Positions 52 to 4,273 of a stretch of 4,273 nucleotides of DNA are shown here, piece after piece. The stretch lies in the sequence record FJ539134.1. One strand, 5' to 3'. Under the pieces are notes generated by a model that was not told the origin of the DNA, ran no database searches, and saw only the letters and a program-made list of their open reading frames with translations. Position numbers and translations under genes: made by a program. Position 1 is the first letter of the stretch. Every line of letters starts with the position of its first letter. The stretch is from Qubevirus faecium.

Positions 52-1404
52 ATGCCAACCCTTCCGAGAGGTCTTCGCTTCGGATCGAATGGCGAGGTCT
101 TAAATGACTTCGAGGCGCTCTGGTTTCCAGAGCGCCATACCGTCGATCTGAGCAATGGGACCTGCAAGCTCACTGGTTATATCACTAACCTGCCTGGCTA
201 CAGTAATATATTCCCGAATAAGGGAGTCACTGTTGCTCGTACGCCGTACAGAAGTACAGTGCCTGTTAACCATCTTGGTTACCGGCCCGTTACGACTGTT
301 GAGTACATTCCCGACGGCACCTACGTGCGCCTAGATGGGCACGTAAAGTTCGAAGGGGGCTTGGTTAATGGGTCAGTTGATCTCACGAATTACGTGATCT
401 CGTTAGCTGCTCAGGGTGGCTTCGATTACCAATCGGTAATCGGACCTAGGTTCTCTGCGCACTTCTCCGCGTTCAGCACCAAATATGGTGTCTTACTCGG
501 GGAAGGGAGAGAGACTCTTAAGTATCTTCTCCTGCTGCTTCGCAGAATGCGTGAAGGGTACCGCGCCGTAAGGCGTGGCGATCTCAAGCGCCTCAGGAAT
601 GTGATCTCTACGTTCGAGCCGACATCCTCTAAAGGGAGGAAGGCAAGATCTGAGTTCTCACAAACCTATCGCGACAAGCTTACCGGTAACAAGGTTGAAG
701 TTAAACCAAGTGAGGGTAAGTGGAATAGCAGTAGTGCGAGTGACCTGTGGTTAGAGTTCCGTTATGGGCTTATGCCGTTGTTCTACGACATTCAGTCCGT
801 GATGGAAGACTTCATGCGTGTCCATAAGAAGATCGCGAAAATACAGCGATTTTCTGCAGGGCACGGTAAGCTGGAGACGGTTAGTTCGCGGTTTTACCCG
901 GACGTCCACTTCGCTCTTGAGGTCACCGCAGTGTTACAGCGGCGTCATCGTTGGGGTGTCATATACCAGGATACTGGTTCTTATGCCACTTTTAACAATG
1001 GTCGTCTAGTCCCGGTGAAGGACTGGAAGACAGCGGCGTTTGCACTCCTTAATCCTGCCGAAGTTGCATGGGAGGTAACTCCTTACAGCTTCGTTGTGGA
1101 TTGGTTTGTAAATGTTGGGGATATGCTTGAGCAGATGGGCCAGCTTTATAGGCACGTCGATGTCGTTGACGGTTTCGACCGGAAGGACATAAAACTCAAG
1201 TCCGTATCCGTACGCGTCTTGACTGGCGACAGTGCGCACGTAGCTAAGTTTACTCTACGTCAAGCACGTTTGTTGCATAGTTATTATTCGCGCGTGCATA
1301 CCGTTGCGTTTCCGCAAATTTCACCACAACTCGATACTGAGATACGTAGCGTTAAGCACGTGATCGATAGTATCGCATTATTAACCCAGCGCGTTAAGCG
1401 CTGA
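52..1404 (+). CDS. A2: Maturation protein A2 (pilus attachment; in Qbeta-like phages also the lysis protein that inhibits MurA)
   Basis: 450-aa ORF, ATG start with upstream SD, TGA stop at 1402-1404. N-terminus MPTLPRGLRFG and many blocks (LWLEFRYGLMPLFYDI, TPYSFVVDWF, LLTQRVKR at the C-terminus) match my recollection of Qbeta A2. First gene in the genome, as expected. Confidence 0.93.
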   Translation: MPTLPRGLRFGSNGEVLNDFEALWFPERHTVDLSNGTCKLTGYITNLPGYSNIFPNKGVTVARTPYRSTVPVNHLGYRPVTTVEYIPDGTYVRLDGHVKFEGGLVNGSVDLTNYVISLAAQGGFDYQSVIGPRFSAHFSAFSTKYGVLLGEGRETLKYLLLLLRRMREGYRAVRRGDLKRLRNVISTFEPTSSKGRKARSEFSQTYRDKLTGNKVEVKPSEGKWNSSSASDLWLEFRYGLMPLFYDIQSVMEDFMRVHKKIAKIQRFSAGHGKLETVSSRFYPDVHFALEVTAVLQRRHRWGVIYQDTGSYATFNNGRLVPVKDWKTAAFALLNPAEVAWEVTPYSFVVDWFVNVGDMLEQMGQLYRHVDVVDGFDRKDIKLKSVSVRVLTGDSAHVAKFTLRQARLLHSYYSRVHTVAFPQISPQLDTEIRSVKHVIDSIALLTQRVKR

Positions 1405-1423: not shown

Positions 1424-1822
1424 ATGGCAAAATTAAATCAGGTAACTCTTTCCAAAATCGGAAAGAATGGGGATCAGACTTTAACTCTTACACCGCGCGG
1501 GGTAAACCCGACGAACGGCGTGGCGTCGCTGTCTGAAGCTGGAGCTGTTCCGGCTTTGGAAAAGCGCGTGACTGTGTCAGTTGCGCAGCCTTCCCGTAAC
1601 CGTAAGAACTTTAAAGTTCAGATTAAACTCCAAAACCCGACTGCATGCACGAAGGACGCATGTGACCCATCTGTGACGCGATCTGCTTTCGCAGACGTAA
1701 CGCTGTCGTTCACGTCGTATTCTACCGACGAAGAACGTGCGCTAATTCGCACTGAGTTGGCAGCTCTGTTGCAGGACAATCTGATCATCGATGCAATCGA
1801 TAATCTGAATCCTGCTTACTGA
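1424..1822 (+). CDS. cp: Major coat protein
   Basis: ATG at 1424 gives MAKLNQVTL...NPAY, 132 codons plus UGA stop. Near-identical in blocks to Qbeta coat as I recall it (PRGVNPTNGVASLS, PALEKRVTVSV, QPSRNRKN, QNPTAC...CDPSVTR, STDEERA, RTELAALL, IDAI, LNPAY), including the two Cys residues. The track's 1418 start is a TTG two codons upstream; ATG 1424 is preferred. Confidence 0.95.
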   Translation: MAKLNQVTLSKIGKNGDQTLTLTPRGVNPTNGVASLSEAGAVPALEKRVTVSVAQPSRNRKNFKVQIKLQNPTACTKDACDPSVTRSAFADVTLSFTSYSTDEERALIRTELAALLQDNLIIDAIDNLNPAY

Positions 1823-2434: not shown

Positions 2435-2454
2435 TAGCATGTCAAAGACAGCTA
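2435..2454 (+). promoter_or_regulatory. Replicase translational operator hairpin (coat-protein binding site): stem UAGC/GCUA + UGUC/GACA, bulged A, AAA loop; contains the replicase AUG
   Basis: Seen directly: 2435-2438 uagc pairs with 2451-2454 gcua; 2439 a is unpaired (bulge, first base of the AUG); 2440-2443 uguc pairs with 2447-2450 gaca; loop 2444-2446 aaa. Same architecture as the Qbeta operator (8-bp stem, bulged A, 3-nt loop) as I recall it. Confidence 0.8.
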
Positions 2455-4169
2455 GTCGCAGAAGAGAAATTACTCAGCTATTGGGTAAGGTCGACATCAA
2501 CTTCGAAGACGACATCCACATGTCTATTGCCAACGACCTCTTTGAGGCCTACGGCATCCCGAAACTTCAGAATGCTGAGGAGTGCATTAACACCGCATTC
2601 CCAAGCCTTGATCAAGGCGCAGACACATTTCGTGTCGAGTATTTGCGCGCTGAGATCTTATCGAAGTTCGACGGGCACCCTCTAGGTACTGATACCGAAA
2701 AGACAGCATGGGAGAAATTCCTGGCTGCTGAAGAGGGTTGTAGACTTACGAACGAACGACTGTCGCAGGTTAAGTACCACGATAATTCCATTTTGTCGTG
2801 GGGCGAGCGTGTAATTCATACTGCTCGCCGAAAAATACTTAAACTAATTGGCGAGTCTGTGCCGTTCGGGGATGTGGCGTTGCGCTGCCGATTTTCTGGC
2901 GGTGCAACGACCTCGGTAAACCGTTTACACGGTCATCCGTCGTGGAAGCATGCCTGTCCGCAGGATGTTACCAAACGCGCATTCAAGTACCTGCAAGCCT
3001 TTAAACGGGCGTGCGGTGACGTTGTAGATTTACGCGTCAACGAGGTGCGCACTTCAAATAAAGCAGTCACTGTTCCGAAGAATAGTAAGACTGATCGCTG
3101 TATCGCCATCGAACCCGGTTGGAATATGTTTTTCCAGCTCGGTGTAGGTGCGGTGCTACGCGATAGGTTGCGTTTATGGAAGATTGACCTTAATGATCAG
3201 TCGACCAACCAACGCCTCGCGCGGGATGGGTCTCTGCTAAATCATTTAGCTACCATAGACTTATCCGCAGCCAGTGATTCGATCAGCTTAAAGCTAGTTG
3301 AATTGCTGCTCCCTCCTGAATGGTATGACCTTCTGACAGATCTCCGATCTGATGAAGGCGTTTTACCTGATGGACGAGTTGTGACCTATGAGAAAATATC
3401 CTCCATGGGAAATGGCTACACTTTCGAGCTTGAGTCGCTTATTTTCGCGGCGCTCGCAAGAAGTGTGTGTGAGTTACTAGAAATCGACCAATCTACTGTT
3501 AGCGTGTACGGGGATGATATAATCATCGACACTCGTGCCGCAGCTCCATTAATGGATGTCTTTGAATACGTTGGGTTCACGCCTAACAAAAAGAAGACGT
3601 TCTGCGATGGACCCTTCCGCGAATCGTGCGGTAAGCACTGGTTCCAAGGGGTAGATGTAACGCCCTTTTACATACGCCGACCAATTCGTTGCCTTGCTGA
3701 TATGATACTGGTTTTAAACAGTATCTACAGGTGGGGCACTGTTGATGGTGTATGGGATCCTAGAGCACTGACCGTGTACGAAAAGTATCTCAAGTTGCTG
3801 CCAAGAAATTGGCGACGCAACCGGATACCAGACGGCTACGGAGACGGAGCTCTCGTCGGATTGGCTACGACGAACCCGTTCGTTATAGTTAAGAATTATT
3901 CAAGACTATACCCGGTATTAGTTGAAGTCCAGAGGGACGTCAAGCGTAGCGAGGTAGGCAGTTATCTATATGCCTTACTCCGCGATCGCGAGACACGTTA
4001 TAGTCCTTTCCTGCGTGACGCAGATAGGACTGGGTTTGATGAAGCGCCGCTAGCTACTAGCCTTCGTCGCAAGACAGGTCGGTACAAAGTGGCGTGGATT
4101 CAGGACAGTGCCTTCATCCGGCCCCCGTATTTCATTACGGGCATTCCCGAGGTGAAGCTTGCAAGCTAG
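2439..4169 (+). CDS. rep: RNA-dependent RNA polymerase (replicase beta subunit)
   Basis: 576-aa ORF, ATG with SD, TAG stop at 4167-4169. YGDD catalytic motif at 3507-3518 (VSVYGDDIIID). Long blocks match Qbeta replicase from memory (CRFSGGATT, NKAVTVPKNSKTDRCIAIEPGWNMFFQLG, LATIDLSAASDSISL, VTYEKISSMGNGYTFELESLIFA, FRESCGKH, GVDVTPFYIR, IPDGYGDGALVG). Confidence 0.96.
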   Translation: MSKTASRRREITQLLGKVDINFEDDIHMSIANDLFEAYGIPKLQNAEECINTAFPSLDQGADTFRVEYLRAEILSKFDGHPLGTDTEKTAWEKFLAAEEGCRLTNERLSQVKYHDNSILSWGERVIHTARRKILKLIGESVPFGDVALRCRFSGGATTSVNRLHGHPSWKHACPQDVTKRAFKYLQAFKRACGDVVDLRVNEVRTSNKAVTVPKNSKTDRCIAIEPGWNMFFQLGVGAVLRDRLRLWKIDLNDQSTNQRLARDGSLLNHLATIDLSAASDSISLKLVELLLPPEWYDLLTDLRSDEGVLPDGRVVTYEKISSMGNGYTFELESLIFAALARSVCELLEIDQSTVSVYGDDIIIDTRAAAPLMDVFEYVGFTPNKKKTFCDGPFRESCGKHWFQGVDVTPFYIRRPIRCLADMILVLNSIYRWGTVDGVWDPRALTVYEKYLKLLPRNWRRNRIPDGYGDGALVGLATTNPFVIVKNYSRLYPVLVEVQRDVKRSEVGSYLYALLRDRETRYSPFLRDADRTGFDEAPLATSLRRKTGRYKVAWIQDSAFIRPPYFITGIPEVKLAS

Positions 4170-4180
4170 ACACTAGCTTG
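4162..4180 (+). other. 3' UTR hairpin (perfect 8-bp stem, 3-nt loop) whose 5' arm contains the replicase UAG stop
   Basis: caagcuag (4162-4169) pairs perfectly with cuagcuug (4173-4180); loop aca at 4170-4172. Confidence 0.6.
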
Positions 4181-4189
4181 TGATGGGAA

Positions 4190-4208
4190 GGGCGGTCTTT
4201 GACCGCCC
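4190..4208 (+). other. 3' UTR GC-rich hairpin (perfect 8-bp stem, UUU loop)
   Basis: gggcgguc (4190-4197) pairs perfectly with gaccgccc (4201-4208); loop uuu at 4198-4200. Confidence 0.6.
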
Positions 4209-4210
4209 GA

Positions 4211-4228
4211 GAGGAGAAAGAAAGAAAA
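4211..4228 (+). other. 18-nt all-purine A-rich tract in the 3' UTR (gaggagaaagaaagaaaa); candidate host-factor (Hfq) binding region
   Basis: The uninterrupted purine run is seen directly. Hfq preference for A-rich / ARN-repeat RNA and its role as Qbeta host factor are established; binding at this exact site is inferred. Confidence 0.4.
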
Positions 4229-4239
4229 CTCCCCTCAGT

Positions 4240-4273
4240 GAGGGTGGGCTCTGCTTTGCCCACTCTCCTCCCA
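4240..4273 (+). other. 3'-terminal hairpin (stem 4240-4249 / 4258-4267, 8-nt loop UCUGCUUU) followed by the terminal ...CUCCCA
   Basis: Pairs 4249c-4258g, 4248g-4259c, 4247g-4260c, 4246g-4261c, 4245u-4262a, 4244g-4263c, 4243g-4264u (wobble), 4242g-4265c, 4241a-4266u, 4240g-4267c. The terminal CCCA matches the canonical levivirus 3' end, where the last A is added by the replicase. The 3' region closely resembles the Qbeta 3' terminus as I recall it. Confidence 0.7.

Follow-up and report, generated by a model that had tools for sequence, protein, structure and literature searches.

A putative Qubevirus faecium counterpart of the Qβ long-range replication pseudoknot between the 3'-terminal hairpin loop and the replicase gene

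In the RNA of Qubevirus faecium (FJ539134.1; the whole stretch of 4,273 nucleotides (nt) analysed here is called the window), seven loop bases of the 3'-terminal hairpin U1 are complementary to a heptamer inside the replicase gene. With a probability of roughly 0.85, the two segments form a long-range pseudoknot of 7 base pairs (bp), homologous to that of phage Qβ, which would position the 3' end for minus-strand initiation. The pseudoknot is already known from Qβ, where it was reportedly described by Klovins and van Duin in 1999 (J Mol Biol 294:875), and is not new; the partner sequences are identical here. We infer that the helix forms in the RNA of the window and that replication would need it, the function being carried over from the Qβ experiments. 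The segments in question, all on the plus strand, are the following:

3060-3066, plus strand: 5' partner of the putative pseudoknot, AAAGCAG, exact complement of the 3' partner, covering K208 (AAA), A209 (GCA) and the opening G of V210 (GUC)
4251-4257, plus strand: 3' partner, CUGCUUU, exact complement of the 5' partner, all bases but the first in the 8-nt loop of the terminal hairpin U1
4240-4249/4258-4267, plus strand: stem of the 3'-terminal hairpin U1 around an 8-nt loop at 4250-4257 (UCUGCUUU), from the minimum free energy (MFE) fold
4268-4273, plus strand: 3'-terminal tail CUCCCA directly after U1, the minus-strand start site

An earlier note on this DNA had taken the two heptamers for exact complements, one in the 3'-terminal hairpin loop and the other about 1.19 kb upstream in the segment encoding NKAVTV, and had likened their geometry to that of the essential Qβ pseudoknot. 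All of this was borne out. The fold placed the seven bases in the 8-nt loop, the partners lie 1185-1197 nt apart with the upstream one in the NKAVTV stretch of the replicase gene, and the likeness to Qβ extends from geometry to sequence and to position at codons 207-210. The duplex is predicted to contribute some -8 to -9 kcal/mol. The helix cannot be extended at either end: U3067 stands opposite U4250, and U3059 could form only a G.U pair with G4258, which itself closes the stem here.

The comparison set consisted of 17 other Qubevirus genomes, Qβ included. The sequence AAUAAAGCAGU was found at replicase codons 207-210 (N207-K208-A209-V210) in 17 of 17, and the U1 loop read CUGCUUU in all but one of the other Qubevirus records that include the loop. 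In Qβ, UAAAGCAG (2972-2979, codons 207-210) is complementary to CUGCUUUG (4195-4202), 1216 nt apart. This pair was the top-scoring loop complement in the Qβ genome and the sole 8-bp one about 1200 nt upstream; the other 8-bp match with seven Watson-Crick pairs lay just 185 nt upstream of the loop. According to two papers, pairing of the Qβ U1 loop about 1200 nt upstream is essential for replication, mutant and revertant work being reported as showing this, and is tied to minus-strand initiation both in vivo and in vitro (PMC3561173, PMC4176380). Among these phages the pseudoknot has been experimentally verified in Qβ only (PMC3561173).

Complementarity of a heptamer in 4.3 kb is, taken alone, within chance and not significant. 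AAAGCAG occurs a single time on the plus strand of the window, and dinucleotide shuffles gave a mean of 0.58 matches over both strands, corresponding to about 0.3 expected on the plus strand. The match owes its significance to the comparative evidence and not to the complementarity itself. Part of that evidence is codon usage. Across 18 Qubevirus replicase genes, 46 of the 280 degenerate codons with an invariant amino acid were also invariant as codons, and N207-K208-A209 (AAU AAA GCA) was among the three longest stretches of the gene in which no codon changes. Further along, the degenerate codons V210 and V212 vary at the third position, so that the freeze falls on the paired stretch. The analysis was widened to 22 allolevivirus-like genes with 44-100% amino-acid (aa) identity, the uncultured relatives among them being obtained through protein search and contig look-ups. 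Over this set only 7 of 124 testable codons stayed invariant, and the AAA of K208 was among these seven, whereas conserved lysines elsewhere in the same genes use both codons. The site is thus under RNA-level constraint beyond protein coding. Further synonymous-invariant runs, at 3753-3761 (aa 439-441) and 3852-3860 (aa 472-474), and single invariant codons (K76, F94, F231, E332, H400 and L472) were seen in the Qubevirus or the 22-gene set; these may reflect additional RNA constraints, such as other long-range helices.

The other part of the comparative evidence came from distant relatives. The site variants among uncultured relatives were AAAGCAG, AAAGCAA and AAAGCGA; by run, SRR6291333/4 and SRR11035275 carried UAAAGCAA, SRR22936638 and SRR8189295 carried CAAAGCAA, and SRR33281762-70 carried UAAAGCGA. 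Three contigs (L118, L119 and L120), representing two uncultured allolevivirus-like lineages, carry the 3' end including the loop. Most Logan/JGI contigs (L108-L117, L121, L122 and L130-L135) end at the 5' arm of U1 and have lost the loop, and longer cluster members of the intermediate-lineage Logan contigs brought no gain. In L119 and L120 the loop was preserved because these JGI contigs are head-to-tail junction assemblies, with the 3' ...CCCCUCC(C) joined to the 5' GGGGUAGGG.... The phages of L118-L120 have 44-48% replicase identity and a read-through domain, and the predicted pseudoknot lies at the homologous codons with altered sequences. In the P0017 lineage (L119 and L120) the hairpin reads GGGGAC(A/U)GG-UUUGCUUUG-CCUGUUCCCC, and the site CAAAGCGA can form 8 bp with UUGCUUUG; no better complement exists in the L120 genome. 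In the P0016 lineage (L118) the 3' end reads GAGGAGGC-GUGUUGCUUA-GCCUCCUC-UACCCC, and the site AAGCAACA can form eight Watson-Crick pairs with UGUUGCUU. The segments used and the variable pairs in the alignment with L118 were as follows:

L119, 2360-2371 and 3500-3545: segments of the P0017 lineage
L120, 1-75: segment of the P0017 lineage
L118, 2018-2032 and the last 45 nt: segments of the P0016 lineage
Alignment pair 16-45: GC in 8 sequences, AU in 3 (2 lineages)
Alignment pair 9-52: UG in 9 sequences, CG in 2
Alignment pair 15-46: AU in 9 sequences, GU in 2

Without L118, the core of eight pairs was 98.8% paired, and pairing over the whole structure fell to 42-61% when the 3' partner was shifted by 1-3 columns; with L118, the helix of ten pairs was 84.5% paired, against 21-53% after sliding. 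All the substitutions observed fit the helix, and in this small sample pairing appears to be kept by compatible or compensatory changes. Among the material covered by our literature search, this is the first sequence-level support for compensatory upkeep of the pairing in uncultured allolevivirus-like phages. Degenerate patterns for the stretch coding for NKA(V/T)TVPKN, run in two metagenome scans, returned nothing or chance matches in unrelated DNA, and the phage collection held no Chimba-like or P0016-like genomes. A group of 78 IMG/VR loci (35-49% identity) was left out for incomplete 3' ends and I/V replacing A209.

The picture was different in nine phages outside Qubevirus, where nothing complementary to the U1 loop was found at the codons homologous to those of Qβ. 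Here a loop complement preceded the Qβ-type site by about 33 codons, in the alignment columns of window aa 171-177 (window about 2950-2970):

MS2, 2211-2216: CAAGCA, with loop UGCUUG at 3549-3554
GA, 2199-2205: CAAGCAA, with loop UUGCUUG
Hgal1, 2322-2328: AAAGCGA, with loop UCGCUUU
M, 2150-2158: UAUGGCGAU, with loop AUUGCUAUG
PP7, 2320-2325: CUGAGC, with loop GCUCAG
AP205, 2778-2784: GCUAAGC, with loop GCUUAGC
C-1, near window aa 174-176: AGCGG, with loop CCGCU

For phage M, the AGCAA at 2168 (2168-2172) proposed by Rumnieks & Tars lies in the same region. When all replicase alignment columns were scanned, the global maximum fell at the columns of aa 171-177, a value reached by 2 of 100 loop shuffles. 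With each phage matched to its own loop the sum was 51.5, against 43.9 +/- 2.2 for deranged assignments, of which 0.09% reached it. Qβ showed no good loop complement at these columns. Tentatively, and with rather more doubt than confidence, we suggest that a covarying pairing of the U1 loop with the replicase open reading frame (ORF) extends well beyond Qβ, with a 5' anchor that has moved: at codons 207-211 in allolevivirus-like phages (including uncultured ones, at 44-58% replicase identity) and about 33 codons upstream in Emesvirus-type and related phages (MS2, GA, Hgal1, M, C-1, PP7 and AP205). If true, selection would act on where the 3' end comes to lie in three dimensions with respect to the region where the replicase docks, and not on a particular sequence. 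A different anchor site in MS2-type phages would also bear on how the replicases of the family find the 3' end.

Predicted structure is consistent with exposure of the loop and of the 5' half of the upstream site in the window. In the whole-genome MFE fold, 3056-3063 is unpaired between two hairpins, with unpaired probabilities of 0.7-0.99. By the local partition function, 3057-3063 is unpaired with a probability of 0.69 (top 0.9% of 7-mers) and the loop 4251-4257 with a probability of 0.76 (top 0.75%). Other partial loop complements in the window (at 1129, 2945, 1561 and 640) were predicted to be buried and were set aside. So was a local helix between AAAGCA at 3060-3065 and UGUUUU at 3127-3132, proposed by RNAalifold on a 136-nt slice; it has a probability of 0 in the local ensemble at -3.2 kcal/mol, and appears to be an alignment-edge artefact.

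At the 3' end, the last 104 nt including U1 folded more stably than shuffled sequences (z = -5.1, MFE), and in the alignment the pairing of the U1 stem was kept in relatives despite changes on both arms. Furthermore, 4269-4273 (UCCCA) was predicted to pair with 4184-4188 (UGGGA), just past the replicase stop codon, which would close the 3' domain. In Qβ the terminal nucleotides are reported to fold back in an equivalent way (PMC8880383), and the long-distance interaction is family-wide (PMC3561173). Rfam covariance models gave no match to the window at E <= 1, and a 1.2-kb pseudoknot cannot be modelled by such models. In the same 3' untranslated region, the hairpin at 4213-4232 with a 12-nt adenine-rich loop (AAAGAAAGAAAA) corresponds to hairpin V, which is described for MS2, Qβ, SP and AP205 (PMC3561173).

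Several observations weigh against the pseudoknot as we read it. A 7-mer complement of this kind is expected by chance in about one quarter of such genomes. NKA is a conserved peptide, and the conservation of the loop may come partly from binding of the maturation protein. The covariation check proposed in the earlier note was uninformative within Qubevirus, both partners being invariant and no covariation being present in the 18 genomes including the window, and it turned out positive only farther away, in the two distant allolevivirus-like lineages. Even there, the change from G-C to A-U may be a single event common to both outside lineages, because it travels with V210T. In one Qβ strain, HL4-9 (FJ483841), the loop reads CUGCUUA with an unchanged site, leaving one A.A mismatch; either the phage tolerates this natural variant or the 3' end was misread in sequencing. 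Our coordinates for the Qβ pseudoknot were assigned by elimination and not from published coordinates. Finally, a local helix between 3064-3066 (CAG) and 3091-3093 (CUG) is predicted with a probability of about 0.99. This local pairing is not conserved among relatives, because its CUG side, made up of the third position of T218 and the adjacent bases, varies among them.

These points could be gathered into an explanation by coincidence, in which the site is conserved for the peptide N-K-A-V, the loop is conserved for recognition by the maturation protein and perhaps by the replicase, and the two segments never pair. Such a complement is not rare by chance, the maturation protein does bind U1 in the Qβ virion (PMC8880383), and phages throughout the family commonly carry the motif GCUU in the loop (PMC3561173). 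However, coding leaves unexplained why the third positions of N207, K208 and A209 are frozen while neighbouring ones vary. Nor does coincidence sit well with the relatives, where a C to U change in the loop stands exactly opposite a G to A change in the site and where, in L118, UG stands opposite CA; it also conflicts with the Qβ mutant and revertant work, which is reported as showing that pairing is essential. Because of the synonymous-site pattern and the compensatory changes, we regard pure coincidence as quite improbable. Alternatively, the helix may form with a different main role, as a switch: until replication has ended, it would keep the maturation protein away from the U1 loop, or ribosomes or nucleases away from the 3' end. 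Binding of the loop is indeed documented both for the RNA site and for the maturation protein, and the present computations do not discriminate between roles; the Qβ data, as summarised in the literature, link the interaction to minus-strand initiation in vivo and in vitro, and we consider the switch as the main role to be very improbable. That the true partner lies elsewhere, for example at GAAGCA (2945-2950) or GCAGG near 2960 in the region of the MS2-like pairing, is scarcely credible, because no segment of the window matches the loop better than the 3060 site, whose homologue is likewise the best match in Qβ and L120; the covarying complement of the phages outside Qubevirus does map to the columns of window aa 171-177 and there is a 6-bp match at 2945, but that match includes one G.U pair, has an unpaired probability of 0.002 and lacks a Qβ counterpart.

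The window is the complete genome of an SP/FI-type RNA coliphage (allolevivirus) assigned to Qubevirus faecium by megablast, with termini 5' GGGG and 3' CCCA. The same search gave 95.1% identity to FI strain BR8 (FJ539135) across the full length, about 92% to SP and 79-83% to NL95/FI; for Qβ the figure was about 72%, over part of the genome only. Its layout on the plus strand is as follows:

52-1404, plus strand: maturation protein gene (ORF list)
about 1424-1822, plus strand: coat gene, with a read-through extension to 2419 (ORF list)
2439-4169, plus strand: replicase beta-subunit ORF of 576 aa (PF03431; 97% identity to the SP replicase), which contains the 5' partner
2626-2953, plus strand: homologue of the M-site, the 'replicase binding region m' of SP (SP annotation X07489, 2629-2956)

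Over the M-site stretch the window and SP are collinear with an offset of -3 and 89% identity. The 5' partner of the pseudoknot lies downstream of this homologue, at a distance of 107 nt.

A mechanism modelled on Qβ work could then be proposed. The replicase holoenzyme would dock at the internal M-site via ribosomal protein S1, and the U1 loop would pair with the segment 3060-3066, predicted to be partly exposed between two hairpins about 100 nt past the M-site. Acting with the other long-distance helices of the 3' domain, the pseudoknot would fix the distant 3' terminus beside the bound enzyme, where the minus strand could initiate at the terminal CCA. Fully paired kissing loops of 6-7 nt exist, and near-complete pairing of the loop with an outside strand is sterically possible for that reason. 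The RNA site and the maturation protein cannot both occupy the U1 loop at once. Since the maturation protein holds the same loop in the Qβ virion (PMC8880383), pairing of the loop with the replicase site would be limited to the state of free, replicating RNA.

For the window itself the finding matters little, a published Qβ element having been met in a congener. For annotation it is of use: codons 207-210 and the U1 loop would not be freely recodable in SP/FI-based vectors or in evolution experiments.

Among known systems, the Qβ pseudoknot is the closest. It shares with the window the genus, the hairpin U1, the loop core CUGCUUU, the partner AAAGCAG and the replicase codons 207-210. The differences are small: the helix has 7 pairs in the window and 8 in Qβ, the U1 loop has 8 nt in the window and 10 nt in Qβ, and the G after the loop closes the stem in the SP/FI group (C4249-G4258), whereas in Qβ it pairs as G.U with the Asn codon's U. 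Another long-range helix resembles the pseudoknot in being part of the arrangement by which the 3' end reaches the internal replicase binding site; unlike the pseudoknot, it is nested, involves different nucleotides and forms no pseudoknot with a loop. The contact between U1 and the maturation protein in Qβ and MS2 virions, described by Chang et al. (2022, PMC8880383) and reportedly also seen by Dai (2017) and Gorzelnik (2016), uses the same hairpin and loop, but is a protein-RNA contact of the packaged state. Farther afield, the kissing interaction between 5BSL3.2 and 3'X in hepatitis C virus (HCV) also pairs an element in the polymerase ORF with the loop of a 3'-terminal structure, and replication needs the contact. 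It differs in being a loop-loop contact in a virus of eukaryotes whose polymerase is entirely viral, and has no homology to the phage element.

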